Part shown: positions 1,991-27,621 of the stretch, in pieces | How positions within the stretch are numbered: position 1 is the first letter of the stretch | Layout of the letters: every line of letters starts with the position of its first letter | Virus record (IMG/VR): IMGVR_UViG_3300033142_000289 | Location: 1 to 56,148 of that record | Direction: 5' to 3' (one strand) | Length of the DNA stretch: 56,148 nt | DNA from: a virus | Taxonomy: Duplodnaviria; Caudoviricetes | Made by a program: the position numbers and the translations under genes | Notes under the pieces: model-generated | Seen by the model: only the letters and a program-made list of their open reading frames with translations | The model's database searches: none | What the model was told of the DNA's origin: nothing

Positions 1991-3583
1991 TTAATCTTTA
2001 TCCTCGTAAGTTCTAGCCATAGTTATTATAGCGTTAGTAGATAATATAGTTACTGCAACAGATACTGCATTTTGTAATGCAGACTTAGTAACCTTTAATG
2101 GGTCAATCACACCCATCTTATACATATCTCCCCATTCACCCGTCTTAATATTCATACCTTCATTACCTTCATCAAATTGAATATGGTGCTCTTCGTCACC
2201 GGATAACTCTAAACCTGCATTGGAATAAATCTGTAACAAAGGAGCACGAAGTGCTCTCGCTAAAATTTTACCGGCAACTTTATTATTATCGTCTTCAATA
2301 TAAGTGGCTTCTTTATAAAGTGCTACTCCACCACCGGGTAGGATTCCCTCTTCTAGTGCTGAACGTACTGCACATACTGCATCATCAACTCTATCGTATA
2401 GTTCTTTTTGTTCTAAGTCTGTTTGACCTCCAACATAAATAACTCCTACACCACCTGTAAGTGTTGCAATCCTTGATAGTATAAACTCTGCGTTGTTTTT
2501 ATCTGACTCTCTTTTGTGTGCTTCTTTTAGTTCTTTTATTCTTTTATCTAATCCTTCTACTTCAACTTCATCTTTAATGATGACGGTTGAGTCACGACCA
2601 ACTATCACCTTAGCACAGTGACCCAAATCATCTAACGTCATCAAGCTTAAATCATCACCGGTCTTTTCACTATAGTAAGTAGCACCCACGCTTAATGCAA
2701 TGTCCTGCATAAGTTCGTGTTGCTTATAACCAAATGATGGTGGTCCAATAGTACAAAGCTTTAAACCATTCTTCATTACATTAGCCGCTAATGTATTTGT
2801 TACATTCGCTGAGGTTGGTGCAATAATTAAAAGTCTTTTGTTATCTTGTATAACAGGCTTCAATACATTTTCTATATGTAGTAAATTTTCAATTGGTGCA
2901 TCACTAACTAGAATATAGCAATCCTCTAGTACACACTCGTCTTTCTTCTGATTGTTTACAAACAATGGTGATTCATATCCACGTTCAATCTTTAATCCAT
3001 TTGTAGATTCATAATATGTCTCAGATGTTTGAGACCTATCAATAGTAACTAATCCGTTTATACCCACCTTCTTGTATACCTCTGATATAATAGTACCCAA
3101 GTCTTTGTCATTGTTTGCTGATATAGTAGCAACGTCCTTTAGTTTCTTTTGTGTAACTCTTGTCGATTTCTTTTTTAAGTTACTGCATATGGTTTCGGTT
3201 AATGAAACTAAATCTCTTAATACCGATGTTTTATTTTCAGTTATAAGTTCTGCACCTGCTTTGACTAAAGCTTCAGTGAGAACAATTGCAGTTGTAGTTC
3301 CGTCTCCTGCTGAGGTCGCAGTTCTTTCGGCTGCTTCTTTCATCATCTTTACCGCAAGGTGTTCAGTGGGGTCGATAAGTGCAACTGCTTTAGCAACTGT
3401 TACTCCATCTTTTGTTACTGTTATTCCGTGGGTGTGTTGTGGTGATTCAATCAATACTGTTTGACCGGCAGGTCCTAGTGTAGACTTTACTGCTGAGGAT
3501 AATGTTTCAATCCCTTTGTATAATTTTTTTCTCCCCTCCTCATCGAACAATAAGTTCTTGGGAGTATATCCTATGTTTGACAT
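1991..3583 (-). CDS. groEL: chaperonin GroEL (Cpn60)
   Basis: STLGPAG, VTKDGVTVAK, AGDGTTTA, TISANND, EEGILPGGGVAL, GVIDPLKV; no C-terminal GGM tail. Confidence 0.97.
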   Translation of the reverse strand: MSNIGYTPKNLLFDEEGRKKLYKGIETLSSAVKSTLGPAGQTVLIESPQHTHGITVTKDGVTVAKAVALIDPTEHLAVKMMKEAAERTATSAGDGTTTAIVLTEALVKAGAELITENKTSVLRDLVSLTETICSNLKKKSTRVTQKKLKDVATISANNDKDLGTIISEVYKKVGINGLVTIDRSQTSETYYESTNGLKIERGYESPLFVNNQKKDECVLEDCYILVSDAPIENLLHIENVLKPVIQDNKRLLIIAPTSANVTNTLAANVMKNGLKLCTIGPPSFGYKQHELMQDIALSVGATYYSEKTGDDLSLMTLDDLGHCAKVIVGRDSTVIIKDEVEVEGLDKRIKELKEAHKRESDKNNAEFILSRIATLTGGVGVIYVGGQTDLEQKELYDRVDDAVCAVRSALEEGILPGGGVALYKEATYIEDDNNKVAGKILARALRAPLLQIYSNAGLELSGDEEHHIQFDEGNEGMNIKTGEWGDMYKMGVIDPLKVTKSALQNAVSVAVTILSTNAIITMARTYEDKD

Positions 3584-4000: not shown

Positions 4001-4184
4001 ATGTCGAATGTCGTAAATAATTTCTACTATAGTAGTAGTAGTAGTAGTAGTAGTAGTAAAATTTTAATAAGAGAATTTGACTTTAAAATCGACATTATCG
4101 ACATCCTATTGATTATCAATAAGTTAACTTCTAATAACCGACACAAAAACGACATAGTAATGTCGAAAATCTGACATAGTAATG
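4001..4184. repeat. origin-like iteron/IHF module, copy 1
   Basis: ATGTCGAATGTC (4001), (TAG)9, AAAATCGACATTATCGACAT (4085-4104), WATCAANNNNTTR match (4114-4126), CGACA at 4139 and 4150, GACATAGTAATG at 4151 and 4173. Homologous to 13222-13384. Confidence 0.7.
4030..4056 (+). repeat. (TAG)9 trinucleotide tandem repeat
   Basis: Directly visible in the sequence. Confidence 0.95.
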
Positions 4185-4257
4185 CACCTATAGTTCAGTT
4201 GGATAGAACAACTCACTTCTAATGAGTAGGTCCTAGGTTCGAGTCCTAGTAGGTGTA
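4184..4257 (+). tRNA. tRNA-Arg (anticodon UCU), CCA not encoded
   Basis: Acceptor GCACCTA/TAGGTGT, D arm GTTC/GAAC, anticodon stem ACTCA/TGAGT with loop CT-TCT-AA, T arm CTAGG-TTCGAGT-CCTAG. Confidence 0.95.
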
Positions 4258-4258
4258 C

Positions 4259-4291
4259 AAAAAAAAGAGACGGTAATCAGCCGTCTCTTTT
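4259..4291. terminator. bidirectional intrinsic terminator
   Basis: AAAAGAGACGG-TAATCAG-CCGTCTCTTTT between the convergent tRNA and the 4319-4513 gene. Confidence 0.8.
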
Positions 4292-4950: not shown

Positions 4951-4982
4951 CTTGTGAGTTAAATAGATTTAGACTAGATTTG
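4951..4982 (+). promoter_or_regulatory. early promoter (CTTG-20 nt-TAGATTTG)
   Basis: Close match to the Bacteroidota -33/-7 consensus, upstream of ardC. Confidence 0.7.
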
Positions 4983-5021
4983 TAAAATATTAATAATTTA
5001 AATAAACTAAAATTAAACATT

Positions 5022-5957
5022 ATGAGTAAGCAAAACGAAATTTTCGAAAGAGTAAATAAGCTAGTAATTGAAGGACTAGAAAAGGAAGGGATGAATTGGT
5101 TCAAGCCTTGGAAAGGTGGACAGGAAAACGCACCATTTAATCTAGCTACAAAACGCTATTACAACGGGTTCAATATCTTTATGTTAAACTGCGTTATGAG
5201 AGCCGAAGGTTATGAGTTCAACCAATGGTTAACTTTTAAACAAGTATCCGCAAAAGGTGGTAAGGTTGTTAAGGGTTCAAAATCTACTGAAGTTTACTTT
5301 TGGCAAATAGGATATTTTGATAATAAAACAGGGAAGTTTGTAAGTCCTAAGGAGGTTAAAAATATTAATCCAAATGAGAAATTAGCTGATGGGAAAGACA
5401 GGTACAGAAAGACTTTCTCAGTGAAATATTACAGAGTATTTAATATTGCTCAGTGCGAAGGAATTGAGCCAATGCAAACAGAGAAAGTTATTGAGGAGGT
5501 TCAAAACGAGCCTGTTGAGGTAGCTGAAACTTTAGTAAAAAACTACGTTGAAAATCAAAACGGTTTTGAGATTAAGCACGGTCAAAGTGGAGCGTATTAC
5601 TCACCATCAAGAGACTATGTAAATATGCCACACCTAGAGACGTTTGTTGACTCTGATAGCTATTACAAAGTTTTGTTTCACGAAATCGCTCACAGTACAG
5701 GTCACAAATCAAGACTTAACAGAAAGTCTTTAACTGAGGTAGCACATTGGGGTGACAATACTTACGCTAAGGAAGAGTTGGTTGCTGAGATTAGTGCAAT
5801 GTATTTAGTAGGGTTGCTAGGACTTAATCCAAAGAGCGATGACGAAAACTCTCAAGCCTACATAAAGGGTTGGTGTAAGCATCTTGCAGACAAGCCAAGC
5901 GAATGTGTCTACGCTATGCAACAGGCAACTAAGGTAGTAGAGTTTATACAGAAGTAA
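5022..5957 (+). CDS. ardC: ArdC-family antirestriction ssDNA-binding protein (DUF1738 domain plus zincin-like domain)
   Basis: WFKPW, YNGFNIFML, WLTFKQ...GGKVVKGSK, VFNIAQCEG, AYYSPSRDYVNMP, FHEIAHSTGH, YAKEELVAEI. Confidence 0.88.
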   Translation: MSKQNEIFERVNKLVIEGLEKEGMNWFKPWKGGQENAPFNLATKRYYNGFNIFMLNCVMRAEGYEFNQWLTFKQVSAKGGKVVKGSKSTEVYFWQIGYFDNKTGKFVSPKEVKNINPNEKLADGKDRYRKTFSVKYYRVFNIAQCEGIEPMQTEKVIEEVQNEPVEVAETLVKNYVENQNGFEIKHGQSGAYYSPSRDYVNMPHLETFVDSDSYYKVLFHEIAHSTGHKSRLNRKSLTEVAHWGDNTYAKEELVAEISAMYLVGLLGLNPKSDDENSQAYIKGWCKHLADKPSECVYAMQQATKVVEFIQK

Positions 5958-5967
5958 ACCAACCACC

Positions 5968-6012
5968 ACCGCCAACCGCCTCGCTATGAAAATAGCGGGG
6001 TTTTGGTGGTAG
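5968..6012 (+). ncRNA. conserved leader hairpin, copy 1
   Basis: ACCGCCAA..CCTCGCTAT-GAAA-ATAGCGGGG-TT-TTGGTGGTAG; intergenic. Confidence 0.6.
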
Positions 6013-6049
6013 AAACTATTAATTAATTTATAAATCAAAATCAAAAATT

Positions 6050-6250
6050 ATGAAATCAATTATCACAATTACAGGAAAAGTTTTAATGACTTTAGCAGTA
6101 TTATTTATTTATACCAATGTAGCTAGAATGGTGGTCGACATCGTTGCCAACAACGGTATTAAATCATTAGCCTTGACACCTGTATTTCTGTTCTTAGCGT
6201 TCTTAATGTATGTTAGTGGATACTTAGTATTCAAAGAGATTAAGAGCTAG
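6050..6250 (+). CDS. small two-TM membrane protein
   Basis: Two hydrophobic segments; A-rich leader. Confidence 0.75.
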   Translation: MKSIITITGKVLMTLAVLFIYTNVARMVVDIVANNGIKSLALTPVFLFLAFLMYVSGYLVFKEIKS

Positions 6251-6266
6251 TTAGAACTCACTAAAA

Positions 6267-6308
6267 CACCAACCTCGCACTGAAATAAATGCGGGGATTT
6301 GGTGGTAG
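6267..6308 (+). ncRNA. conserved leader hairpin, copy 2
   Basis: CACCAA-CCTCGCA-CTGAAATAAA-TGCGGGG-AT-TTGGTG-GTAG; intergenic. Confidence 0.6.
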
Positions 6309-6337
6309 TAATAATTAATAATTAAAATTAAATTAAA

Positions 6338-7462
6338 ATGCAAACAGTAAACAATTGGGATGACATCAAATTTGAAAAGCATCCCGCAACAGATGAAGGT
6401 GTAAGAGGCACCCTAAAAATTGCTCAGTATGAGTTGTCAATCGTAGGAGGTAAAAACTTTTACTCAACAGGCTTCGATGGTAAAATTAGTTCTTGGTTAA
6501 AGCCTGACCAAGATAGGTTCTATAGTAGCTTTGAGGTAGCAGTATTTGAAACCAATGAAGACGGTGACAAAGAATTTACTAGAAAGTTTTTTATTGGAGC
6601 CAATGACGATGTACTTGGTTGGCAAGGTAGAGAGGATATATTAGAGTTGATATCAAGAGTTGAAAAAAGTTTAGAGGTCAAGACATTAAACTATATGTCC
6701 TATACCGATAAGCCTGAAATCACAAAAGAGTTTTTAGAATCCATCAAAGATAAAAAGAACTTAGACCGTTGCGAAAATATTTATAACTCAAACAACGGGC
6801 AAGTGGAACACGATAAAACATTGTACAATCTTTTAATTGAAGGAGGCTTTGAATCTAAGGATATTAATTACATAGTTAGTTCTGAAACTGAAACATTTTA
6901 TATCATAGATGGCAATATAAAATATACCGTTTACATTAATGTGCCTTATAGTAAATTACAAATAAGATATAAGACATATGTATCAAATCGTTACAGTGAC
7001 GAAACACCTCATCTAAAAATAAAATTAGCAAATCCTAGATTAAAGGACCTGAATACAAGTTATTCAAGAGGACCTAGGTATGGTAACAAAATGGAATGTT
7101 GGAGTATCACAGATACAAGCCGAGGATATACTGCTAAAGGACTACTTAAGAAGATTAAGGAGTTGGCTGAGGAATCAGAAAACAATATGTTAATCTATAG
7201 CAAGAGGTTGTTGTGTTATAATAAATATACTTCACAATTAAAACAAAAGTATCCTAGTGCAATCATAGAAAACATAAGCAAGTACTACGATAATCTTGAT
7301 AAAATCAAGCTATCTTTTCCTTCAGGAAGTTATATGTATTTTAATATAAATGCTTGGAGAGAAGATGATACTCAATTTGAAATGCTATCATACAAAGATG
7401 CTAACGAGTTTAAGTTAGATACTTGGGAGGAGTGGGCAGATAGATTTAACAAGCAGAAATAA
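6338..7462 (+). CDS. hypothetical early protein
   Basis: 374 aa ORF with A-rich leader. Confidence 0.8.
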   Translation: MQTVNNWDDIKFEKHPATDEGVRGTLKIAQYELSIVGGKNFYSTGFDGKISSWLKPDQDRFYSSFEVAVFETNEDGDKEFTRKFFIGANDDVLGWQGREDILELISRVEKSLEVKTLNYMSYTDKPEITKEFLESIKDKKNLDRCENIYNSNNGQVEHDKTLYNLLIEGGFESKDINYIVSSETETFYIIDGNIKYTVYINVPYSKLQIRYKTYVSNRYSDETPHLKIKLANPRLKDLNTSYSRGPRYGNKMECWSITDTSRGYTAKGLLKKIKELAEESENNMLIYSKRLLCYNKYTSQLKQKYPSAIIENISKYYDNLDKIKLSFPSGSYMYFNINAWREDDTQFEMLSYKDANEFKLDTWEEWADRFNKQK

Positions 7463-7626
7463 TGGAAAGACAAAGCTATTATAATGTAAGATATGCGGGG
7501 AAACTAATACAGGTTATCCCCGCCCACACCAAGTGGGAAGCTATAGATAGAATCTACAATAAAAATATAGGAACCCATCCTTGGATTAAAAGAGAAAAAT
7601 TTACCGCAGTCAAATCTAAAAATTAA
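7462..7626 (+). CDS. 54-aa hypothetical protein MERQSYYNVRYAGKLIQVIPAHTKWEAIDRIYNK...
   Basis: TAATG coupling to the upstream gene; fills the gap; below the track cutoff. Confidence 0.65.
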   Translation: MERQSYYNVRYAGKLIQVIPAHTKWEAIDRIYNKNIGTHPWIKREKFTAVKSKN

Positions 7627-7631
7627 ACTAT

Positions 7632-7868
7632 ATGAATTACGATGATTGGAAATTACAGGCACCAGAATACAGTGAGTATGTAAGTACTTGTTGTGGTGCT
7701 GACTATGTTAACTCTATAGATTATGAGAATGACATAGAAACTGAAGAGCCTTACGTTTGTAATAGTTGTCAAGACTTTTGTGAAATAGAGGAAGATTGGG
7801 AATATGAAGAACGCAGAAGGGAATCCTACTTAGAGGATTTAGCTGACGAAAAAAGACAAGGACTATGA
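7632..7868 (+). CDS. acidic protein with possible Zn-ribbon (STCCGA...CNSCQDFC)
   Basis: Cys clusters; ATGA overlap with the next gene. Confidence 0.7.
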   Translation: MNYDDWKLQAPEYSEYVSTCCGADYVNSIDYENDIETEEPYVCNSCQDFCEIEEDWEYEERRRESYLEDLADEKRQGL

Positions 7869-8419
7869 AAGTTAAATTATTAAATATATTATTAGGTTCA
7901 AACTTAATCTTTGGATTGAGTTTAATCTTTGGATACCAAGACCATACACCTGTTCAAAAACAAAAAGAGATTATTCAAAATGTAATTGATAGCCTAGAAA
8001 CTATACCACCTCAACCTCAGTTCAGAGAGTTGAATTGGGATGATTTTATTGAGAGTATGATATGGGTTGAGAGCAGAGGTAATGACTCAATAATTGGAGA
8101 CAATGGAAAGGCAGTTGGTTGTCTTCAAATCCATCCAATTATGGTTAGAGAAGTTAATAGAGTTCTAAGAAAAAATAAAGCAAACAAAAAATACAAACTA
8201 CAAGATAGATATAGTAGAGAAAAATCTATTGAGATGTTTGAGATTATGGCAGAACAAACAGAGTGTTGTGATGACTTAAGTTTCTTTGAATTCTGTGAGG
8301 TAGTAGCAAGAAAATGGAACGGTGGGGGAAGAGGTCATAAAAAGAAATCAACCCTGAATTATTGGAAGAGAGTAGAAAATAAGTTGTGCAGTATAGATTT
8401 GGAATTGTCAAATATTTAG
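7865..8419 (+). CDS. lysozyme-fold / transglycosylase-like protein with N-terminal membrane anchor
   Basis: WVESRGN (candidate catalytic Glu), AVGCLQI, ARKWNGG; hydrophobic N-terminus. Confidence 0.7.
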   Translation: MKVKLLNILLGSNLIFGLSLIFGYQDHTPVQKQKEIIQNVIDSLETIPPQPQFRELNWDDFIESMIWVESRGNDSIIGDNGKAVGCLQIHPIMVREVNRVLRKNKANKKYKLQDRYSREKSIEMFEIMAEQTECCDDLSFFEFCEVVARKWNGGGRGHKKKSTLNYWKRVENKLCSIDLELSNI

Positions 8420-8429
8420 ACTATATTTG
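8398..8429 (+). promoter_or_regulatory. Bacteroidota promoter TTTG-20 nt-TATATTTG
   Basis: Exact -33/-7 consensus and spacing. Confidence 0.8.
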
Positions 8430-8490
8430 TACTGAACTTAGATGCTAGGATGTTTTAGTTTATATTATTAATAGGGTTGACCTAGCAACC

Positions 8491-8533
8491 CCACCAAGCT
8501 GACCTTGAAATAGTGGTCGGCTTTTGGTGGTAG
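8491..8533 (+). ncRNA. conserved leader hairpin, copy 3
   Basis: CCACCAA-GCTGACC-TTGAAATAGT-GGTCGGC-TT-TTGGTGG-TAG; the inner stem differs in sequence but pairing is kept. Confidence 0.6.
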
Positions 8534-8566
8534 AAGGCAATAGTGCCACAATCAAAATCAAATCAA

Positions 8567-8866
8567 ATGAGAAAAATATCTTATGACTCAGCACAAAAAT
8601 TTATGAATGCTGAACCGTTTAAAAGAGACAACACAGAAGTTGTTGTACTTCCAAATGTAACTGTATTAAAACTATTCGGTAACGAAATTGCATACAGATA
8701 CAATGACCCTGAAAGAACACTATCAATCACAAATTGCGGTTGGAAATCCAACACTACTAAAGATAGGCTGAATGCTATTGAAGGTGTTAGTATAAATCAA
8801 TCCAAAAAAGTTTGGTACCTAAACGGTGAAGCTTGGGATGGTAGCTTAATAGATATTAATAATTAA
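8567..8866 (+). CDS. hypothetical early protein
   Basis: ATG 8567 after an AATCAAAATCAAATCAA leader is preferred to GTG 8543. Confidence 0.75.
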   Translation: MRKISYDSAQKFMNAEPFKRDNTEVVVLPNVTVLKLFGNEIAYRYNDPERTLSITNCGWKSNTTKDRLNAIEGVSINQSKKVWYLNGEAWDGSLIDINN

Positions 8867-8878
8867 AATAAAATCAAA

Positions 8879-9184
8879 ATGAAAGTAAAAATTCAACAAA
8901 GAAGTGTGTACCACAAATTCGCAGAAGTAGAAATAGAGATAGACGATGATGCCTACGACCATTGGAAACTTGACAATGGAAAGTATGCATCTATTCAGGA
9001 TTTTCTAATAGAGAATGAAGACTTATATACAGATAAAATAGATGAGGAAATGAGTAAAGCATCTTATGAGTTTGGTTTTGGAACTGACTCTGATGCCAAC
9101 TCTCACTACAATTCCTGTATGAACGAACCTGAATCTGAGTCTGAATGGAGATACCAATTAAATGATGAGGGTGGACACTTATAA
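8879..9184 (+). CDS. acidic hypothetical protein
   Basis: 101 aa ORF, A-rich leader. Confidence 0.75.
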   Translation: MKVKIQQRSVYHKFAEVEIEIDDDAYDHWKLDNGKYASIQDFLIENEDLYTDKIDEEMSKASYEFGFGTDSDANSHYNSCMNEPESESEWRYQLNDEGGHL

Positions 9185-9208
9185 TATTAATTAAATAAAT
9201 AAAATAAA

Positions 9209-9514
9209 ATGATACACATAACAGATGACCATTTTGTTTGGCTAGATGTAACCGAACAAATGAAACACGGACACAAGAAGAGAGAAGAAGTATGGCTTAG
9301 TCACGAACTTTTTGCAGTACACGAAGATGAATCTGATAGTATGCTTGAGTCACACGATGAGATAGATGAAGCATTAAAGTTAGGGATGAGAGTATGTATT
9401 GAAGGTGGATACCTACCACTAAAATACCGTCCTAAAAAAACTTGGAAGGATACAGACAAACAACTTATCAATGGATATTGGTATGTAAAAATGTCTGACA
9501 TAAAAATAGGATAA
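9209..9514 (+). CDS. hypothetical protein
   Basis: 101 aa ORF, A-rich leader. Confidence 0.75.
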   Translation: MIHITDDHFVWLDVTEQMKHGHKKREEVWLSHELFAVHEDESDSMLESHDEIDEALKLGMRVCIEGGYLPLKYRPKKTWKDTDKQLINGYWYVKMSDIKIG

Positions 9515-13163: not shown

Positions 13164-13187
13164 GTATACATTGTGTTGGAAAGTAAG

Positions 13188-13214
13188 AGGGAGACTTATG
13201 TCTCCCTTTCTTTT
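13188..13214 (+). terminator. intrinsic terminator
   Basis: AGGGAGAC-TTAT-GTCTCCCT-TTCTTTT. Confidence 0.8.
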
Positions 13215-13221
13215 CCCTTTA

Positions 13222-13384
13222 ATGTCGAATGTCAATAAAAATAAACTTTATTAACATTATATTATTTCATTTAATTTTCTTTTCTTTACATAACACGAGA
13301 AGAAAATCGACATTATCGACATAGTACTGATAATCAATCAATTACAAAATCAAAATCAACATTAAATCGACACAAAACCGACAC
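13222..13384. repeat. origin-like iteron/IHF module, copy 2
   Basis: ATGTCGAATGTC (13222), AT-rich spacer, AAAATCGACATTATCGACAT (13303-13322), IHF consensus (13332-13344), C(A/G)ACA at 13357, 13368 and 13379. Directly upstream of the primase. Confidence 0.72.
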
Positions 13385-13388
13385 AGGA

Positions 13389-15806
13389 ATGACACAAAGA
13401 GTTACAATCTTCAAAAATATAAAGGAAACAGAGACACCTTTTCATCGTGAGGTGGGGGAAATCCTAGAGAGAATAAAGAATGGTGCAACAAAGAACTTAG
13501 TTAAAGATATTCGTGGTGCCAAAGACAAAACAGAACGCAATGAACTAAAGAAAAGACTTCCCGCTATATGTTTTAGTGGTGTATTCGTAAAGCGTAATGA
13601 CAGTGCAATAACAGAACATAGTGGATATATCTGTTTGGATTTTGATGGGTATCCAAAAAGAAAAGAGATGTTGTCCGATAAAGAAAAGTTTAGTAAGGAC
13701 AACTATGTGTTTTCTGTTTTTGTTTCACCATCAGGAAATGGACTTAAGGTGCTAATTAAAATACCACCTATAGCAGACAATCATATTAAATACTTTAATT
13801 CATTAGAAAAATATTTTGATTCACAGTACTTTGATAAGACTTGTAAGAACTTATCAAGAGTATGTTATGAATCATATGACCCACTATTACATTTAAATAT
13901 AAACTCACAAGTGTGGGACACTATATCCGAGCCGGAATACAGAGAGGTTACTGCCAACATTGACCAACCAACAATACCTATTACAGACGAGAATAAGGTT
14001 GTAGATATTCTAGTAAAATGGTGGACAAAAAAATACCCAATGAGTGAAGGTCAAAGAAATCAAAACGCATTTGTTTTGGCTATGGCTTTTAATGATTACG
14101 GTATTAATAAAACACTAGCGGGTTATGTTTTAAATCAATACGAAACCAAAAGCTTTCCACTGTCAGAGATAAATAGAACAATTGATTCTGCTTATTCAAA
14201 TACAATGAATCACGGAACAAAGTACTATGAAGACAGTGAGAAGTTAGAAATAATAAAAGGTAAACTCAAAAAAGGAACACCAAAAAAAGAAGTCCGTTCT
14301 CAACTAATTGACTCAGGTGTTGAGAATGATGTAGCAGATTCTATTATTTCAAGAATAGAAAAAGATAATTCAAAGCAAACATTTTGGGAAAAGAACGATA
14401 AGGGTACCATAAAAATGGTACACTATAGTTTTAAAAAGTTCCTAGAAGATAATGGGTTTTATAAATTTAATCCTGAGGGTGGTCGCAACTATGTCTTTGT
14501 GAAAGTAACAAACAATTTAATTGACCATACTACTGAAAAAGAAATTAAAGATTTTGTATTAAAGTATCTGATTGAACTTGATGACTTATCTATTTACAAT
14601 TACTTTGCTGATAACGTAAGATTCTTTAGAGATGAATTCTTAACCCTGCTTAATACTATTGACGTATACTTTATTGAGGACAGTAAAGATGCCGCATACT
14701 TATACTATAAAAACTGTGCAGTAAAAATTACAAAGGATTTAATTGAACCTATAGATTATTTAGATTTAGGTGGGTATGTATGGAAGGACCATATCATTGA
14801 TAGGAAGTTTCAGATTTGTGATGACAACTCTTGTGACTACAAAACCTTTATAAAAAATATTTGTGGAGGTGATAAAGAGAGGGTAAAAACTATGGAGTCT
14901 ACCATTGGTTTTATGATGCACGGATATAAAAATTTAAGCTACTGTCCTGCAGTAATACTTAATGACGAAATTATATCTGACAATCCTGAAGGTGGAACAG
15001 GTAAAGGTTTGTTTATGAATGCACTATCTCAAATGAAAAAGCTAGTGGTTATTGATGGTAAAGCTTTTGCTTTTGAAAAATCTTTTCCTTATCAATTAGT
15101 TTCTGCTGACACACAACTACTTTGTTTTGATGATGTAAAAAAACATTTTGATTTTGAAAGACTATTCAGTGTTGTAACCGAAGGCTTGACACTAGAAAAG
15201 AAAAACAAAGATGCAATAAAGATACCATTCAGCAAGTCTCCTAAAATATCAATAACAACTAACTATGCAATCAAGGGAACGGGAAATTCTTTTGCTCGTA
15301 GAAAGTGGGAAATAGAATTGCATCAACATTATAATAAAAACTTTACACCACTTGATGAATTTGGTAAGCACTTCTTTGCAGATTGGTCAGAGGATGAATG
15401 GTGTGGGTTCGATAATTATATGACAACATCTTTACAAGACTACCTAACAACAGGTCTTGTAAAAAGTAAGTTTGTTAATCTTAAAATACGTCAGCTATCT
15501 GCGGAAACTTCACACGATTTTATTGAGTGGTGTGGGTTAGTAGAGGGTAACCAAAAGAATAACAGTCTTAGTGTTGGGGTAAAATTAATAAAGCAAGATT
15601 TATATTTTGAGTTTATAGGTGAGTATCCTGACTATGGACCTAAAGCAAAGATGACAATATCTAGAACTAGGTTTTATAAATGGTTAGTTTCTTATGCAAT
15701 TTACAGTACAGGGATTCAGCCTGAAGAAGGTAGAGACCCACAAGGAAGGTGGATAAGATTAAGAAGGAAACACGAACTAGAAGAACAATCAACATTAGAT
15801 ATATGA
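13389..15806 (+). CDS. primase-helicase (BT4734/VirE-N-like primase domain, PriCT-like domain, SF3-type P-loop helicase)
   Basis: LPAICFSG, HSGYICLDFD, FVSPSGNGLK, DKTCKNLSRVCYESYDP; EGQRNQNAF; GGTGKGL Walker A, CFDD, ITTNY. Confidence 0.88.
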   Translation: MTQRVTIFKNIKETETPFHREVGEILERIKNGATKNLVKDIRGAKDKTERNELKKRLPAICFSGVFVKRNDSAITEHSGYICLDFDGYPKRKEMLSDKEKFSKDNYVFSVFVSPSGNGLKVLIKIPPIADNHIKYFNSLEKYFDSQYFDKTCKNLSRVCYESYDPLLHLNINSQVWDTISEPEYREVTANIDQPTIPITDENKVVDILVKWWTKKYPMSEGQRNQNAFVLAMAFNDYGINKTLAGYVLNQYETKSFPLSEINRTIDSAYSNTMNHGTKYYEDSEKLEIIKGKLKKGTPKKEVRSQLIDSGVENDVADSIISRIEKDNSKQTFWEKNDKGTIKMVHYSFKKFLEDNGFYKFNPEGGRNYVFVKVTNNLIDHTTEKEIKDFVLKYLIELDDLSIYNYFADNVRFFRDEFLTLLNTIDVYFIEDSKDAAYLYYKNCAVKITKDLIEPIDYLDLGGYVWKDHIIDRKFQICDDNSCDYKTFIKNICGGDKERVKTMESTIGFMMHGYKNLSYCPAVILNDEIISDNPEGGTGKGLFMNALSQMKKLVVIDGKAFAFEKSFPYQLVSADTQLLCFDDVKKHFDFERLFSVVTEGLTLEKKNKDAIKIPFSKSPKISITTNYAIKGTGNSFARRKWEIELHQHYNKNFTPLDEFGKHFFADWSEDEWCGFDNYMTTSLQDYLTTGLVKSKFVNLKIRQLSAETSHDFIEWCGLVEGNQKNNSLSVGVKLIKQDLYFEFIGEYPDYGPKAKMTISRTRFYKWLVSYAIYSTGIQPEEGRDPQGRWIRLRRKHELEEQSTLDI

Positions 15807-19722: not shown

Positions 19723-22700
19723 TTAGTTTCCAAATTTTTGACTACCAAAGGTATCTTTACCTTTCTTCTTTCTTTTCTTTTTACCAAAGCCATCACCACT
19801 TCCAAAGCTTCCTGAACCAAATGAAGAACCTGATGTGTAATTCATTTCTTTATCTTTCAGTAATCTTTTTAACTCAGCCTCTCTTCTTTTCTGTTCCTTT
19901 AATTGTTGTTCAGATTCATAATCAGGAGAGTTAGGACCAAAGGTATCATACCACAACCTATAGTTATATCTTTTCATTTCGCTTCTTGAACTATAGTTAC
20001 CAAGCTTTTCTTTTTCTATAGCCGCAGCTTTTCTTTCTTGTGCTTGTTTTTTATTCATCTCTCCATATAAACTTCTTAAGACTAAACGTCTTACGTCTTT
20101 ATACATAGGAATGAATCCTGAGTTACCTAGCAATTCAAGAGGTAGTCTATACATTAATTCATCTGCCTGTCTTTCTTGTGCTTCAACTGTTTTCTTTGGT
20201 GCAGATGTAGCTTTCTTAACAATAAAATCTGCAGTCTTAACCGCAGGTCCTAAAGATGCAGCCATATTAGTTAGTATATCTCCAAGAGAAGAGCCTCTTC
20301 CGTCTTTACTTTTTGGTACAACTTGATATGATAATCCGTCTTTATAAACATCATACTCACCATCCCTTAAAAAGTCTAAGAACTCTTTATTGAATTCTTC
20401 AATACCCATATTAAGTATTGCTTTAGTTGCATTACCAAAGTCTCTACCAACAATCAACCCTAACATTGATGAAGCCACTGCTTGACCAAGTTTCTTCTCG
20501 ATGTCTTTAGGTTCTTCTTCTTCACCTGCAATACTTGCTAGTGCCTCACCCAATACCTGTGCCATCATAGTGTACATAATCATACGAGTAGTTGAACCTG
20601 CAAGTAATGCTGCTCCTTTTCTCTTACTCAAGTGACCTCTTCCTATTGCATTAACAATACCTGTTCTTGCAGTTACATATTCGTATATTAAGAATGTGGT
20701 CATAAAAGAATTAAACGCATTAAAGGCAGTTTTAAATCCACTGTCTCCCGGCTTTCTTGTTCCTTTTAATATTCCTAGAAATGGATTAGCAGTTGAACCT
20801 GTCATAACAGAAGTTTCGTCAGCTATCTCTGTAGCCTTAGCTAAAGCTTCTGCGTTATCTGCCATATACTTAGAATCATTTGCTGCAATCTTATCCATAT
20901 CAGGTTCTATACCTGTTATCTTTTTAAACTCAGATGCGAAAGACCCAAACCACATTGGTCTCATTACAATCTTATCAGGGGTAGATATTAATCCGTCAGC
21001 TAAAGTTGCTACACCGCTCTGATATTTTTTCCCTGACCTATTCCAAATTTGTACAAGCTTATTCATATACTTGCCCTTCGCTCTTCCACCCTTGATACCC
21101 TCTGCTTCTTTCATTATGTTGGTATCAATCATTCTACCCGACATATCTTCATTGGGATAAATACGGTTAGTCTGTTTACTTTTTAGATTCTCCATTGCTT
21201 TTGGAGCGGCATCACTATTTAAAAACTTAACACCAAACTTAGAACCTGCTACAAATGCAACCGGATTAGTAATCAATGCAAATGCAGTATTCGAAGTGAG
21301 TTCAGCTACCCATCTAGAACTACTTGCAAGTATAGCACGGTATCCATTTTTCTTTAACCAATTCATTGCTTCTTCTGCAATGGTAGTTTGTTGATACGCA
21401 GTTGTCAAAAGATTTTCTACAACCTCTTCATATGCATCTCTAATAGCGTTGAATTTTTCTCTATCCTTAGAATCCATTCTTGCTTTATCACCTTTAAGTC
21501 TAGCCTCAGCTACATTTAAAGTTCTTCTTGCAGTTCTAATAGGTTCTGTCATATGAAAATCTAACAACACACCTTTGGCTCCTCTTGTTGCAGAAGCATA
21601 CACATCAAAGTTCAATGCCGAAACAACTCCCTCTCTTTTAATTAAAGACTTTGCTTTTGTTGAACCCTTCATACCATTCATATACTGTGTTATAAATGAT
21701 TCACTACTGTTAGGGTCAAGTCCTTTTTCATTAACTACATTTAAATGAACATAGTTATTTCTTGGTTTAATACCTGTACCACGAATAATAGATGCAGTCT
21801 GAACCGCCATTGGTCCTAGTTCAGAATTAACTTCCTGTATTGTTTTAATAGAATTTTTTTCTGCTTCATTAAAACTATTATAAAGTTTCTCTAAGTTGAT
21901 TTCACCTGTTTCTTTATCAGTAAACTTTTCTAAAATCTCTGCCAACATTTCAGAGTCTTGCTGACTGAAGGTTGTCTTGTCTGTGTCAATAGCTTCTATA
22001 GTCTTTTTAACATATGCAGCAGCTTGATGTCTTGTCTCAGGGTTACCCAAGTTGGAATCGTGTTCAAGTTGAATCATATAAACCATCTGCTTAAACTTAG
22101 ACATTAAAGTTTTATTTGGATTTTGTTTAAATGATTTAGCAACTGCCGCTTCTGCCGCATCTATCTTACCTCTTAGTCTTTTGAATTGAGATGTAAACAA
22201 CTCCTGTGCCTTTGCAGATTCATTAAATAAACTATTAAAAATAGGTTTGCTTTTAAAATTTCCAAATACTTGGTCAACATAAAACAGAGGATTTCTCCTA
22301 ATAGCTTCAGAGATAGCACCCTTTCTAGTTAGCATACTTTTAAACTTAGCATACATCTTAGTTATTGGAAGCATCTTAGAACCTGATATTCCCCCTGCAA
22401 GTTCCTTACCATTCAACTGTGCGTTCATTTTCTCGTTCATTACCTGAACAAGATGTGGTGTGTATCCGTTGTTTATATTATTGTATAGCTTATCAATTTG
22501 TTTTAAATCTTCAAGTGAAAGATTTTCTATAGCCTCGATATTGTTTATCAGGCTTTCAAACATACCCGCTACCTTTCTCTCAAACTTACTTGGTAATTCA
22601 GATATCTTTAAGGCAGGTAGTTTTTTAATGTTCTTTAAAACTTCTTGTCTTTCTGCTTCAATTTCTGCATCTGTTTTTTCTACCTTCTCTTTCTTAGGAA

Positions 22701-25700
22701 GTATTTCACTCTTATACTTTTGCATTACCTCTAAGTCTACCTCATCAATGATACCATCATTAAGCATAGCCTTAATTGTTTTAGCGTAATCAATCTTACC
22801 GTCCTTATCAACAACTTTATTTTCAAATGCAGAATATTTTTCCTGCAGTTCAGGAACTTTAGAGTACTCTACATCAACCGCTTCTAATATTCTTTCTGTA
22901 ATTTTTTCAACCTCAGCTACTGCAGATGGATTTAAAATTGCTTTCCTTGCTCCAAACTCTGCAACTAAATCTATGTACTCTTGGAATACTGATTCAGGAA
23001 TCAATGAAGCCTTCATTGAGAATATTCTATTCAATTGAGTATTGACCGCATCGGCAATACCTATCTTAGTTCTTACATTTTTAATAGCCTGTTTGCGTTG
23101 CTTGTTAGCAACTGCCACTTCCTCTGCATAGTTAGCGTTCTTAAATACTCTACGCATATATTCAGCGAAGCTATCAATAGATGCATCACTAAGCATATTA
23201 ACCTTTGTAAATCTTTTAATTATAGCTGAAGCTTGTTTAGGAGTTATCTTTCCTTTCTGAGCCATCTCTCCTATCTGTTCAGCCAACTGCTTACTTGCCT
23301 CGACAAATGCTTGTATTGCATTTTTTGCTCCACGGTTTAAAGCTTTAATCTGTTCAGCTAATGCTTGTTTTTCTGTAAGCGTAATTTTCTTAGGGTCTAC
23401 CTTACCAAATAATAATCTTTTAGCAGACGGAGCCTTCTTATCTTTTTGCCCAAACTTTTTTCTCAAATCACGAACCATCTTTTCTCTCTGAACGTCAGTT
23501 GAGTTTTTATAAAGCTTAGTTCCTTTTAAATATTCTAAAGCTGCATTAAATATTTTAGTTGGACTTGTGCTTTCTTTTGTATTTCTAGCTTTAATCTTTT
23601 CAACTATACCATCTATTTCACTCATCACTCTATCAAAGCCTTTTGCAAACTTCTCGCTGACTTTAGATTTTTGATTAGCTTTAGGTCCTGCTTTTTCAAA
23701 CGCTGCTTTTATGTCAGGCATTGAAACACCTCTTCTATTTAAAACAGTTTTAATAGCAACCTCTGAGATACCCTGTCCCCTTGCATCTTTTATAAACGCA
23801 GCAACATCATCTCCTAAGGAGAACCTTGGCATCATACCTTGTGATTCCTTGGCGGCATCAAACTTATTATCTTTTTTAGCCTTAGCATCTACAGGTTTAC
23901 CTGCAAATAAATCAGCAAGACCTACATTGATAAACTCATCTAAAGACATTGCTTCTATTTTCTTTTCGTCTACATCAGCAAGTGTTGTGAATTTTTCTTT
24001 TATGTATTTAAAAGTGGCATTCATCCACTCTTTAAATCTAGATTTCTTAGCTGCATTAATAATGGTTTCACCCTTTGTAGCCATCAACTCTACTAACGCT
24101 TCCTCTCTTGCTAACTTATTATCCCCATACTTTTCTATAGCTGCCTTTAATGCAGGAGTTCCTTCTACAAGTTTTAATCCTTTCTCTAAAAGCTTAGTTC
24201 CTTTTCTACCACTAGACTTAGACCTCAAGAAATCAATCCATATATGTCCAAACTCGTGAATAGGTGTACCTAATGAAGCTTGTTCAGGATTTAAAAATAC
24301 CTTACCTTCTTTGGTCATACCAAGAATGGTCTTACCTTTTGAAACCTTAGTTCTAACACCCGGTTCTTTTAACATAGCATCAAACTCCTGTTGTGTTGCC
24401 ACTACAGTTACACCCGGAAATGCAAATCTAAATTTGGCAGCTAACTGTTGCATATCAGTTATGCCATCAGCTTGAACTGATGCACCCTGAAATGCTTTAT
24501 CATTAGCTACAGTTCCCATAGTTTGAGATGAAACATTTTTATCTGAAGGTCTCTTTCCTGCCTTATCCTTTTTAAATACTCTATTTGATTTTGCTTTCCA
24601 TTCAGGGAATACTTCCATTCCGCTTGTTGGATTTTTAATAAGCTTAATCAATCTACCCTTTGGACCTGAACCATAGTTAGGGTGGTCTATATCTATAACA
24701 CCACCATTCAAAACATCTACACCTACAATTGAAACCACGTCTCCTTTGTTTGCCTTCATCATAGAAGGTTCACCTACTGCAGCATAAATATTATCTGAAG
24801 CAAAAACATTTGAGTTATCCGTTGTTCCTTTGTATAGTGCTTTTAAGAATGTCTTGTTTGGAGTTGAAACTCCTTCAGGTGAGGTTATGTTGTAGAATAA
24901 TTCTGCTCTTTCATCAAGAGTTAAAGTGTTATTTACATCTCCCTTTGCTCTAGCATTTGCATCAGAAACAACCGCATCCATTAAACCTCCTAAGGTCTTT
25001 ATGTTTTTATCTGCTATAAATTGAAGAAGTCTAGGGTTGTTTCCAAACTTTCCTTTCTTTCTTTTTAAGTCAGACACAAGTTCATTTAAAGCGGCAGTTT
25101 GGTTTTCTGTTGATTGTTCTTTAATCTCGGGTGCAAGATACCTGAATACAAGTTCGTTTGAATTGATAGCATCATTACCCATACGGATAATCGCCATTGG
25201 AATATGTCCCTTTGGTAGTCTTCCCTCGTCCCACAATCTGTCAAACAAGTCTTTATTTTTTTTGTATAGTTTAACTGCGTTATCATATTGACCTTGAGAT
25301 GTTTCTCTTTTTACTCCTGCCCAAGCCGCTTTAACTTTAGCAAGTGCATTAAACATTACACCACCTTTTGCATTCATATCGTTACCCTTGGAATCTTTTA
25401 TTGTTCCACCTGCAGCGATATCTGAAACACCGGTAATCATAGGTATTCCATTAAACTCTTCAATACCACCAACCATATCGTCTTGTGATTCAAAACCTAA
25501 GTCGGTAACCTCGTTTTCATTTAAATTTGTAGAAGAATTACTAGCCTCAAAAGGATTAACTTGAGATGTTGTTTGACCTTTAGGAGTTGTAAAGTTTACC
25601 TCAGCCTCATCCATTTGATTCATCTCTTCAGTAATAGCTTCTGAGTCTGCGGGGTCAGCAACGAATGCCGACTCACCTTCTTCGGCTATACTAAATCTAG

Positions 25701-27621
25701 TCTCACCCTCTAAATTTCCTTCTAGATTTTCTATATCTTGTTTTAATATTTGAGATGCTCTTTCATCAACCATCTCTGAAGTAAGTTCGTATTCTTTAAT
25801 ACCCTTCTCAGCCATCTCATTTTGCATTTGGTCGATGGCTCTATCTTGAAGTTCTAACTTATCTTCAGGAGATAAGGCATTATATTCTTCTATACTCTCC
25901 TTAACATTGTCAGCTACTTCTGATATTACTTGTTCTGTTTCTGCAGCAGCTTCATCAGCTAATTGATTTTCCTGAAGGTTTACTATTTGTGCTTTTAGGT
26001 CTGCAATTTTTTTCTTACCGGTTACTGTACCTAGTACTCGTCCTTCAAGTTCTTGTACCTGTCTCTCTAGGTCTACAATAGCATCAACAGTTGGTCCATT
26101 TAAATCAGGATTAGCAGCCATAACAGACTCCTTTGTTCTACCTGCTAAAATTTTATCTTGTAATTTTTGTGCTCTACCTTCAAAGTCATTGTCTATTTGT
26201 ATTTTAAAATTAGGAGCGGTTAATTGCTCATAAGTCATACCATCAATAACTTTATCTATTTCTTCTACAGTAGCTTTCTTTCCGTTAATTTTATATTTAG
26301 GATTTTGGTATCTAACTGAAATTAAATCCTTAACAGAACCCGGTGCTTCAGCAATACCTTCTAATAGTATTTCACCGGTATCAAATTCTTGTCCTTGTTC
26401 ACCGTATATATTAGTAGCTGCAATACCTGCAGTTTCACCAATAGAACCACCTACTGATTCAACTCCCATAGCACGACCAATTGCTTTTCTTTTTAACGCT
26501 CTTGATGCAGATTTACTTCCCGCAGACCCCGCCTTAGTAAGCAATGGTTTTGCTACCTTACCACCTAATCTACCTGTTAATGCATCTATAGTACCGATTG
26601 CTAAACCTCTTGCGATAGCATCAAATCTTAGTTCATCAACAACCTCTTCATTAGATAGTAATTCTTTTACGTTATCTGCAGTTAATTCTTTTCCTTGAAC
26701 TTCAAGTCTTTCTTTTAATAACTCTCCATAAGTTAAACCTGTTTCTAAAACTGTACTAGCTGCCGCAAAAGCATAAGGTAAACTAGCTGCGGCACCTGCA
26801 ACTGCACCCGGTGCTGCACCAACACCACCCGCTAACGCACCTGCACCTGCACCATAAGCAGTACCTGCTGCAATAACTGCACCTCCTGCTGCTGCTGAAT
26901 CTTCATTAGCCATAGCTGAAAAAGAACTAGCTAATACCTCAGGAATAACACTAGGGTTTAATATGAGTCCCTTTATTGTTCCCCATACACCCTTGCCTTC
27001 TTCTTCATAAATCCTTTGATAATCTTGCATTTCATCAGAAGGACCCAATTGAGTAGCCTTTTGACTTTTAGATATAAATTCCTGTATATCTTCATAGGTA
27101 GCAGAAGTACCACCCATAAGTAAATCGTTACCACTTTCTGCAATCTGACCATTTTGAAAACCGGCATCAATTGAACGTGCCATATCATCAATAAAGTCTC
27201 CTACACCTACAGGACTAATGGCATCTATACCTCTTAGTATATCACCAAATGTTCCTTGAAAGTAATCAACCTCCTCAGAAACGGGAGACGGTGAAGTTGT
27301 AGCACTTGATGTGCCATCCGAAAAACTTGAAACGAAATCCGGAGTATCTTTTTTTTTTAAGGAGCCTTGCTCAACATAAGATTTAAATTCCTCTACACCA
27401 TAGCGGTTTACCAAATCACCTTCAGAGTAAACTTTACCATTAGGTGTTTCATAAAAATGACCACCATCTTGAAAATTTAATTCAGGTGTTTCTTCTTCTA
27501 CAAATTCAGTTAACTGCCCTTCATTTACAAGTTGGTCAAACCCTTCATCACCATATCTTTCTAGTGCTTCTTGTTGACTAATCTTATAACCATTGGGTGT
27601 TACATAAAAAATTTCATCCAT
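19723..27621 (-). CDS. giant (2632 aa) internal virion / ejected protein with zincin-like metallopeptidase motif
   Basis: TPIHEFGHIW...EEALVE motif; Gly/Ala hydrophobic segment; last of three cargo-like genes after the tail genes. Confidence 0.75.
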   Translation of the reverse strand: MDEIFYVTPNGYKISQQEALERYGDEGFDQLVNEGQLTEFVEEETPELNFQDGGHFYETPNGKVYSEGDLVNRYGVEEFKSYVEQGSLKKKDTPDFVSSFSDGTSSATTSPSPVSEEVDYFQGTFGDILRGIDAISPVGVGDFIDDMARSIDAGFQNGQIAESGNDLLMGGTSATYEDIQEFISKSQKATQLGPSDEMQDYQRIYEEEGKGVWGTIKGLILNPSVIPEVLASSFSAMANEDSAAAGGAVIAAGTAYGAGAGALAGGVGAAPGAVAGAAASLPYAFAAASTVLETGLTYGELLKERLEVQGKELTADNVKELLSNEEVVDELRFDAIARGLAIGTIDALTGRLGGKVAKPLLTKAGSAGSKSASRALKRKAIGRAMGVESVGGSIGETAGIAATNIYGEQGQEFDTGEILLEGIAEAPGSVKDLISVRYQNPKYKINGKKATVEEIDKVIDGMTYEQLTAPNFKIQIDNDFEGRAQKLQDKILAGRTKESVMAANPDLNGPTVDAIVDLERQVQELEGRVLGTVTGKKKIADLKAQIVNLQENQLADEAAAETEQVISEVADNVKESIEEYNALSPEDKLELQDRAIDQMQNEMAEKGIKEYELTSEMVDERASQILKQDIENLEGNLEGETRFSIAEEGESAFVADPADSEAITEEMNQMDEAEVNFTTPKGQTTSQVNPFEASNSSTNLNENEVTDLGFESQDDMVGGIEEFNGIPMITGVSDIAAGGTIKDSKGNDMNAKGGVMFNALAKVKAAWAGVKRETSQGQYDNAVKLYKKNKDLFDRLWDEGRLPKGHIPMAIIRMGNDAINSNELVFRYLAPEIKEQSTENQTAALNELVSDLKRKKGKFGNNPRLLQFIADKNIKTLGGLMDAVVSDANARAKGDVNNTLTLDERAELFYNITSPEGVSTPNKTFLKALYKGTTDNSNVFASDNIYAAVGEPSMMKANKGDVVSIVGVDVLNGGVIDIDHPNYGSGPKGRLIKLIKNPTSGMEVFPEWKAKSNRVFKKDKAGKRPSDKNVSSQTMGTVANDKAFQGASVQADGITDMQQLAAKFRFAFPGVTVVATQQEFDAMLKEPGVRTKVSKGKTILGMTKEGKVFLNPEQASLGTPIHEFGHIWIDFLRSKSSGRKGTKLLEKGLKLVEGTPALKAAIEKYGDNKLAREEALVELMATKGETIINAAKKSRFKEWMNATFKYIKEKFTTLADVDEKKIEAMSLDEFINVGLADLFAGKPVDAKAKKDNKFDAAKESQGMMPRFSLGDDVAAFIKDARGQGISEVAIKTVLNRRGVSMPDIKAAFEKAGPKANQKSKVSEKFAKGFDRVMSEIDGIVEKIKARNTKESTSPTKIFNAALEYLKGTKLYKNSTDVQREKMVRDLRKKFGQKDKKAPSAKRLLFGKVDPKKITLTEKQALAEQIKALNRGAKNAIQAFVEASKQLAEQIGEMAQKGKITPKQASAIIKRFTKVNMLSDASIDSFAEYMRRVFKNANYAEEVAVANKQRKQAIKNVRTKIGIADAVNTQLNRIFSMKASLIPESVFQEYIDLVAEFGARKAILNPSAVAEVEKITERILEAVDVEYSKVPELQEKYSAFENKVVDKDGKIDYAKTIKAMLNDGIIDEVDLEVMQKYKSEILPKKEKVEKTDAEIEAERQEVLKNIKKLPALKISELPSKFERKVAGMFESLINNIEAIENLSLEDLKQIDKLYNNINNGYTPHLVQVMNEKMNAQLNGKELAGGISGSKMLPITKMYAKFKSMLTRKGAISEAIRRNPLFYVDQVFGNFKSKPIFNSLFNESAKAQELFTSQFKRLRGKIDAAEAAVAKSFKQNPNKTLMSKFKQMVYMIQLEHDSNLGNPETRHQAAAYVKKTIEAIDTDKTTFSQQDSEMLAEILEKFTDKETGEINLEKLYNSFNEAEKNSIKTIQEVNSELGPMAVQTASIIRGTGIKPRNNYVHLNVVNEKGLDPNSSESFITQYMNGMKGSTKAKSLIKREGVVSALNFDVYASATRGAKGVLLDFHMTEPIRTARRTLNVAEARLKGDKARMDSKDREKFNAIRDAYEEVVENLLTTAYQQTTIAEEAMNWLKKNGYRAILASSSRWVAELTSNTAFALITNPVAFVAGSKFGVKFLNSDAAPKAMENLKSKQTNRIYPNEDMSGRMIDTNIMKEAEGIKGGRAKGKYMNKLVQIWNRSGKKYQSGVATLADGLISTPDKIVMRPMWFGSFASEFKKITGIEPDMDKIAANDSKYMADNAEALAKATEIADETSVMTGSTANPFLGILKGTRKPGDSGFKTAFNAFNSFMTTFLIYEYVTARTGIVNAIGRGHLSKRKGAALLAGSTTRMIMYTMMAQVLGEALASIAGEEEEPKDIEKKLGQAVASSMLGLIVGRDFGNATKAILNMGIEEFNKEFLDFLRDGEYDVYKDGLSYQVVPKSKDGRGSSLGDILTNMAASLGPAVKTADFIVKKATSAPKKTVEAQERQADELMYRLPLELLGNSGFIPMYKDVRRLVLRSLYGEMNKKQAQERKAAAIEKEKLGNYSSRSEMKRYNYRLWYDTFGPNSPDYESEQQLKEQKRREAELKRLLKDKEMNYTSGSSFGSGSFGSGDGFGKKKRKKKGKDTFGSQKFGN

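Follow-up and report, generated by a model that had tools for sequence, protein, structure and literature searches.

What is the short structured sequence that recurs three times between genes on the plus strand of the viral record IMGVR_UViG_3300033142_000289 (Duplodnaviria; Caudoviricetes), and what does it do there? The window analysed here, 56,148 bases, is the whole IMG/VR virus record, with an estimated completeness of 93%. A first-pass annotation made from the letters alone had described three hairpin copies with compensatory changes, each about 30-37 nucleotides (nt) before an early gene, as a possibly undescribed regulatory RNA. We find that the sequence is a real, covarying two-tier phage RNA element. 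We tentatively read it, with a probability of roughly 0.4, as an intercistronic 'punctuation' hairpin, a cis-acting cassette in the plus-strand polycistronic mRNA of phages with Flavobacteriia-type hosts, the function being the inferred part of this reading. The three copies in the window are as follows.

5968..6012, plus strand: copy 1; fold -27.9 kcal/mol, z -5.2; covariance model 61.9 bits; outer helix 5968-5975/6003-6010 with one G.U pair, inner helix 5978-5987/5992-6001, GAAA loop 5988-5991, GUAG tail ending at 6012; 12 nt past the ardC-like stop codon, ATG 6050 lying 37 nt downstream
6267..6308, plus strand: copy 2; fold z -3.3; covariance model 67.7 bits; outer helix 6267-6272/6299-6304, inner helix 6273-6279/6290-6296, bulge 6297-6298, GUAG 6305-6308; 16 nt past the ORF66 stop codon, ATG 6338 lying 29 nt downstream
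8491..8533, plus strand: copy 3; fold z -3.6; covariance model 61.5 bits; outer helix 8491-8496/8525-8530, inner helix 8497-8504/8515-8522, tail ending at 8533; ATG 8567 lying 33 nt downstream

All three were found at the positions originally claimed and fold into the proposed arrangement, namely an outer helix C(A/G)CCAA/UUGGUG, a 2-nt bulge on the 3' side, a GC-rich inner helix of 7-10 bp, a UGAAA-containing loop and a constant GUAG tail, with a U.G pair at the third inner-helix position of every copy. None of 200 shuffles folded as well as the plus-strand copies, and for copies 1 and 3 the minus strand gives a poorer fold. The record contains exactly three occurrences of the 11-mer TTTGGTGGTAG, all on the plus strand, where about 0.03 exact occurrences would be expected by chance in 2 x 56 kb (our own calculation); its reversed control has no occurrence in the window or record. 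A Chi-like or dispersed motif was rejected, the 11-mer with up to two mismatches giving 25 matches against 17.4 expected. The covariance model (R1), run on the window with filters off, matched the three copies alone at 61-68 bits, the next plus-strand match scoring 9.9 bits. The tail-to-ATG distances agree with the spacing noted at first, and the reported lack of a long U tract also held: no run of five or more T occurs in the 8 nt downstream of any copy, and a terminator scan of the window flagged none of the three.

The family beyond the window was collected by three pattern scans of viral contigs followed by a fold-energy filter, which separated true hairpin copies from many chance matches; the figures below refer to the matches listed. 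At least 35 copies were found in at least 22 viral records, window included, that is, about 32 copies in 21 other records; this count includes one doubtful locus (L004 in G013), which lies inside a same-strand open reading frame (ORF). Three further candidates were rejected, one (L181) being a tRNA 3' end followed by a canonical terminator and two (L455 and L452) being 32-nt partial matches. The covariance model, which the first-pass annotation had proposed as a check, found additional copies that had not been selected by pattern, both in the records of relatives and in those of distant phages.

The helices are maintained by compensatory change. In a hand-structured alignment of 18 rows, two-sided changes were seen in all nine inner-helix pairs. 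A second alignment, fitted by the model and hence leaning towards the model's structure (38 rows, 29 of them distinct, two being reverse-strand matches), had 92.7% of 425 cells paired, compared with 77.3% in shuffles and at most 54% with slid partners. In this alignment double changes occurred in 12 of 15 pairs, including three of the six outer-helix pairs, where C-G became G-C in two G001 copies and U-A in G008. None of 500 shuffles reached any of the five covariation measures. G.U cells outnumbered A.C cells by 34 to 14, and the plus-strand RNA is therefore favoured as the form in which the element folds, as had been proposed.

Conservation is not evenly spread over the structure. Conservation is seen at the foot of the inner helix, mostly CC(U/C)C paired with GGGG, and in the next residues, N-UUU; with this base of mostly C-G pairs, the inner helix is a GC-rich hairpin such as intrinsic terminators have. 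Loops vary freely, from GAAA to unrelated sequences of 10 nt (4-10 nt overall). The most conserved part is the 3' strand with the tail, GGUGGUA(G), followed by AAAC in about half of the copies; together they read UUUGGUGGUAG-AAAC. The 5' strand is freer: at two loci (L359a and L447) it now forms G.U pairs with an unchanged 3' strand, and at a third (L449) a different outer helix forms, leaving the conserved tail unpaired and without a partner in register. Tail conservation exceeds what the search design imposed, because a scan that required the 5' half and left the last six bases open still returned hairpin-forming matches ending in TGGTAG nine times and TGGTAT once, among 67 distinct matches listed. 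Among copies not selected by pattern, tails ended in UAG, UGA, UAA, UAU or UAC.

A second conserved hairpin family was seen in the viral contigs (L232-L236, L241, L243, L254, L260, L266, L284, L300 and L304). It shares with the element the start CACCAACC and the stem end ...GGGGGCUUUGG, carries a U-rich tail, UCUUGU or UUUUGU, instead, and looks like an ordinary terminator relative of the element.

The position of the element relative to genes is as regular as its fold. All 35 tabulated copies are co-directional with the flanking genes, and in 30 of the 35 a same-strand ORF ends 1-43 nt upstream of the helix. In hand-checked copies the true stop codon is at least about 8-12 nt from the helix, which shows the element to sit just past the reach of a ribosome terminating at that codon. 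On the other side, in 28 of the 35, a same-strand ATG ORF starts 14-39 nt past the tail. A connection with early genes, drawn from the window, does not hold generally: in one phage group (G006, G007, G014 and G015) the genes on either side of the element are those for terminase and portal. The genes next to the copies in the window are listed below.

5022..5957, plus strand: ArdC-like anti-restriction gene (phrog_7245, E 2e-70), upstream of copy 1
6050..6250, plus strand: ORF66, small, of unknown function and without a family match, between copies 1 and 2
6338..7462, plus strand: ORF374, of unknown function, downstream of copy 2
8567..8866, plus strand: ORF99, Kyano_Gp96 / phrog_554 family, downstream of copy 3

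Comparison with other phage genomes shows the element at mosaic junctions. In the window, copies 1 and 2 enclose ORF66; the stretches fetched from G003 and G004 lack this gene at the corresponding site and have a single element on the ardC side, with the ORF374 homologue directly next to it. Around copy 3, a block of about 60 nt is near-identical in G003 and G004, while its flanks diverge and the downstream gene differs from that of the window. In addition, contigs of one DNA run (X9) depart from the window sequence at 5977, 6292 and 6326 and continue into G004-like sequence.

Promoter candidates and small accessory hairpins around the copies are as follows.

4975..4982, plus strand: -7-like box TAGATTTG, 40 nt before the ardC-like gene, without a full -33 match
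8398..8429, plus strand: host-type promoter candidate TTTG, 20 nt, TATATTTG (pattern scan)
8475..8490, plus strand: small hairpin GGUUG...CAACC directly 5' of copy 3, within the conserved block
8536..8547, plus strand: small second hairpin GGCA-AUAG-UGCC directly 3' of the copy 3 tail, read from the sequence

The scan used the -33/-7 promoter consensus. TTTG-N20-TATATTTG is the sole full match in the 4.9-13.2 kb plus-strand block and one of four in the window. Because this full match, conserved in G003, lies upstream, copy 3 would be placed in a 5' leader, about 55-95 nt past the start site of the candidate promoter. The pattern scan found no full -33/-7 match at copies 1 and 2, which are presumably inside a transcript starting before ardC; its start is likely to be at TAGATTTG. 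The GGCA-AUAG-UGCC hairpin sequence also follows a G001 copy, analogous hairpins follow the G008, G009 and L357 copies, and several copies have, downstream of the element, a further small hairpin with an A-rich run behind it.

The distribution of the element is patchy. Among records with a 70-79% identical primase, element matches (E <= 0.001) were present in 8 of 50 (the 50 searched of 80 fetched), one of the eight being a 32-nt partial match that looks spurious, and in 6 of the 23 that were at least 90% complete. The site after ardC, compared in seven relatives, holds one canonical element, two variants and four other stable hairpins without U runs, two of which resemble a tRNA T-arm. In relatives without the element, ardC is flanked by T-arm-like hairpins of the GGGGTTCGATTCCCC type (L358 at 2443-2480 and 3473-3510; L361/L362 at about 3380-3420), each followed in L358 and L361/L362 by a small GACAAT-ATTGTC hairpin; ARAGORN found no tRNA gene at these hairpins.

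Protein comparison shows the element in unrelated phages, with no meaningful shared protein: blastp of the window against complete element-bearing records gave no match with G009 and three marginal matches (E 0.003-0.01) with G010. An exact-pattern scan of 185,579 species genomes returned two matches, both hairpin-less and in GC-rich sequence, and thus no real copy. Against GenBank phages, blastn of 4 kb found nothing and blastn of one element copy gave noise only (E >= 0.6), and the covariance model had no match in five Flavobacteriia phage records, including the closest, MW202828.1.

These observations are brought together in the reading of the element as a punctuation hairpin between cistrons. 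RNA polymerase, in transcribing the GC-rich inner hairpin and the UUU and G/U tail behind it, would pause or partly terminate; alternatively, the finished transcript would be cut at the helix base. The tail could then fold back on CCACCAA, and the upstream mRNA would end as a fully paired hairpin resisting 3' exonucleases. As a stable, self-contained structure, the hairpin might also prevent the next gene's start region, which is A-rich and has no Shine-Dalgarno sequence, from pairing with upstream sequence, and the conserved 45-60 nt may serve as homology for the exchange of gene cassettes, as in the PeSL cassettes of phage T4. We count in favour of this reading that other stable hairpins take the place of the element behind ardC in four of the seven relatives compared.

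Several points weigh against it. The U run is only 3-4 nt long and is followed by GGUGG (tail N-UUU-GGUGGUAG), short of the tract of about 7 U of an intrinsic terminator. According to the available part of a 2026 preprint, strong terminators need a 7-U tract with specific bases at the bubble edge; by this rule the element would terminate weakly at best. The element is accessory and its function dispensable, because only 8 of the 50 close relatives have it. A plain stabiliser or insulator hairpin, moreover, needs no conserved sequence in its 3' strand and tail, and that sequence persists with G.U partners (L359a, L447) or, in one copy (L449), with no partner in register. Finally, the RNA-labelled contigs over copy 3 are shallow and possibly DNA. 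These contigs, from two runs, span copy 3 at 8331-8590 and 8365-8714 and, being contigs, cannot show RNA ends. Runs X18 to X20 cover only small parts of the region, and the lack of RNA cover over copies 1 and 2 is uninformative.

The element is no canonical terminator, and probably not a strong one: canonical U-tract terminators sit elsewhere in the window, and the RNA-labelled contigs, weak evidence in themselves, cross copy 3. It does resemble intrinsic terminators in its GC-rich stem with a G-C base, in the U residues directly after it and in its position behind stop codons, but it differs from them in having 3-4 U followed by GGUGG, in the sequence conservation of both flanks, in lying downstream of a candidate promoter in one copy, and in being crossed by the RNA-labelled contigs.

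A pure processing site, at which a host endoribonuclease of the RNase III type or a sequence-specific one would cut at the bulge or helix base and separate the cistrons, is the best placed of the alternatives and is in our view unlikely. The RNase III sites in the early region of T7 are likewise interrupted hairpins between early cistrons, with an anti-restriction gene in first place, and in both cases cutting would leave a 3' hairpin on the upstream mRNA. The element has an interrupted helix of 13-18 bp with a conserved 2-nt 3' bulge, lies between cistrons of an early operon that starts with an anti-restriction gene, and has a conserved helix base and tail that would suit a sequence-reading nuclease. 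RNase III sites of the T7 type, however, require an interrupted helix of about two turns, or about 20 bp; the element helix is shorter, cleavage of it is putative only, its sequence is conserved across unrelated phages, and the conserved UUU after the GC-rich stem looks more like a co-transcriptional signal.

Rather improbable is a site like ops or opsX, at which the nascent hairpin would pause RNA polymerase and the non-template tail GGTGGTAG... would recruit a NusG-family factor of the host, rendering transcription processive or coupling it to translation shortly before a start codon, with the outer helix acting as an 'escape duplex'. The tail GGTGGTAG agrees with the E. coli ops core at seven of eight positions, a match that was noticed post hoc, and GG-GGTAG is common to ops and the element tail (ops as given in the available text of Saba et al. 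2024, PMC11685472). As far as that text goes, opsX sites are about 40 bp long and lie in 5' leaders, with a nascent RNA pause hairpin directly followed by a 12-nt conserved sequence; some have escape-driving hairpin extensions and some have start codons 9-25 nt downstream (PMC11685472). The likeness to the element thus extends to a nascent hairpin, a conserved sequence of about 12 nt and a leader position near a Bacteroidota start codon. Copy 3 lies in a putative leader behind a conserved candidate promoter, conservation is higher in the tail than in the strand it pairs with, and occurrence in unrelated phages without a shared protein would fit a host factor.

The details fit less well. The part of ops that forms the DNA hairpin is GCGGTAGC, whereas the tail GTGGTAGA, compared by eye, changes both closing bases (C to T and C to A) and has no GCG...AGC stem; the Bacteroides consensus YGCGNAGCR does not fit the tail either (both as reported in the sections of PMC11685472 at hand). 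The element has no pyrimidine-G step where one is expected for pausing, its conserved sequence overlaps the hairpin's 3' arm whereas that of opsX follows the hairpin, and two of the three copies, 1 and 2, are within an operon rather than a leader. A search of the 22 element-bearing records for a phage NusG paralogue (NGN domain) found none. It is doubtful that the element is a portable ops-like cassette with which unrelated Bacteroidota phages exploit the pausing of RNA polymerase, or a NusG-family factor of the host, before starts without a Shine-Dalgarno sequence; if it were, phage transcripts would escape termination and be coupled to translation.

It is distinctly unlikely that the element acts as DNA, whether as a single-strand hairpin promoter, for priming or as a site of recombination, or that it is a selfish repeat without a function for the phage. 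G.T pairs form in single-stranded DNA too, and such a role would suit both the mosaic junctions and the patchy distribution, but the copies are always co-oriented with the flanking genes and tightly spaced from stop and start codons, and the helix is kept by compensatory change over wide divergence. There is also no recognisable phage RNA polymerase in the window, the 2632-aa and 1612-aa proteins having no PDB or Pfam polymerase match and no DxDxD. Hairpin promoters of the N4 type have a 5-7 bp stem and a 3-nt loop and are used by a virion RNA polymerase; they were rejected on the loops of 4-10 nt and the lack of a recognisable polymerase in the giant proteins, which leaves the earlier suggestion of single-stranded DNA hairpin promoters unsupported.

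Least probable is an operator for an RNA-binding protein, either a translational repressor of the next gene or an antiterminator of the lambda N/boxB type as suggested earlier. In its favour, the start-codon distance is fixed (14-39 nt) in 28 of the 35 copies, and a UGAAA-type loop is common to several copies. Against it, the loops differ widely in length (4-10 nt) and sequence where boxB would have a conserved GNRA-like loop, and it is instead the foot of the helix and the tail that are conserved; no phage protein in common was found, and the downstream genes are mutually unrelated.

Three further readings of the tail were rejected. A leader peptide (UGG-UGG-UAG, with UGA and UAA variants) would need an in-frame start codon, but ATG, GTG and TTG are all missing from that frame in 8 of 28 copies, and in the others the start position is not conserved. 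As a mimic of CRISPR repeats, whose 3' handles the tail GUAGAAAC recalls, a metagenome scan for two tails 58-88 nt apart gave 13 stretches, all of them coding sequence or satellite repeats. As a promoter with TTTG as the -33 box, no consistent -7 box was seen downstream by eye.

Among known systems, the punctuation hairpin comes nearest to the PeSL cassettes of T4-type phages, in which a promoter and a stem-loop form one composite unit; these units lie next to orphan genes and mediate their shuffling (Arbiol et al. 2010, PMC2839356; Comeau et al. 2014, PMC4122927, in the portions available). Like these, the element is a conserved intergenic cassette with G-T pairs in its stem-loop and a stop-to-start position (PMC2839356; PMC4122927); it flanks small early-region orphan genes at insertion/deletion junctions, as seen for ORF66 and the copy 3 block, and occurs several times per genome. 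Unlike it, PeSL, as far as described in the parts of those papers at hand, always carries a sigma-70 promoter and a stem-loop shown to terminate, whereas only copy 3 has a promoter candidate nearby, about 60 nt upstream and so not within the cassette. The conserved part of the element is its G/U-rich tail and not promoter boxes, the hosts are Bacteroidota, and the element is also present in unrelated phages. It is an uncatalogued element, closest to known intercistronic stem-loop cassettes but with an unusual conserved G/U tail. The supposition that it might be undescribed was borne out to this extent: no Rfam 15 family matched it in the whole window at gathering threshold, positions 5900-8620 gave no match at E <= 5, motif strings matched only primers in the literature, and topic searches gave no paper on the element, the RNIE paper being without relevance.

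The host of the window phage can be placed from several features. All relatives found for the primase/helicase-like protein are from phages of Flavobacterium, Nonlabens, Polaribacter, Cellulophaga, Maribacter and Bacteroides, the nearest being an uncultured record (72% identity). Gene starts in the window have A/T-rich leaders without a Shine-Dalgarno sequence, and several intergenic TAnnTTTG boxes, which we take to be the Bacteroidota -7 motif, lie upstream of window genes. From the primase relatives, leaders and boxes we infer a host in Bacteroidota, and within it probably in Flavobacteriia. The motif ATATTAATAATTAAAATAAAAT is found at gene starts (4983-5019, 8849-8885, 9180-9216 and also 6314-6343), preceding start codons with or without a hairpin, and is probably the Shine-Dalgarno-less translation start region of the window phage. 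Near-identical DNA to window 5000-9000 (73-98% of sampled words) was present in 17 runs among 20 holders, which come from 16 studies and are mostly marine sediment and vent metagenomes; because of these 17 runs, the phage or its close kin is considered widespread.

Besides the ArdC-like anti-restriction protein, the plus-strand block at about 4.9-13.2 kb encodes a Sak annealing protein, a PDDEXK nuclease and many small proteins of unknown function. The remaining features of the window are as follows.

1991-3583, minus strand: GroEL-like chaperonin (phrog_5725, E 1e-136), 62-73% identity in three relatives
4085-4170 and 13303-13398: (A)TCGACA-unit blocks of 70-95 nt, mutually 74-79% alike
4184-4257: tRNA-Arg gene, the sole Rfam match of the whole window at gathering threshold
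4263-4291 and 13186-13209: canonical U-tract terminators (terminator scan of the window)
19723-27621, minus strand: 2632-aa protein without a PDB or Pfam assignment, its C-terminal third alone matching an unnamed PHROG

One of the (A)TCGACA blocks adjoins the tRNA-Arg gene and the other directly precedes the gene for the primase/helicase; both blocks are possible iterons or operator sites.

To our knowledge, the gene expression signals of Bacteroidota phages are poorly known; their hosts have no Shine-Dalgarno-led initiation and use a promoter type of their own. If the element is only a stabiliser or attenuator hairpin, it is no surprise in itself and is useful as an annotation landmark and as a candidate Rfam family. 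It also marks where these phages swap gene cassettes. The conservation of the tail across phages sharing no protein suggests, from comparison of their sequences, a reader supplied by the host. Because a strongly covarying element with a conserved tail is common to phages that share no protein, it points to a host machine that would read it, for instance a nuclease, RNA polymerase or a factor of the NusG or NusA kind, and offers a compact handle for the study of that machine.

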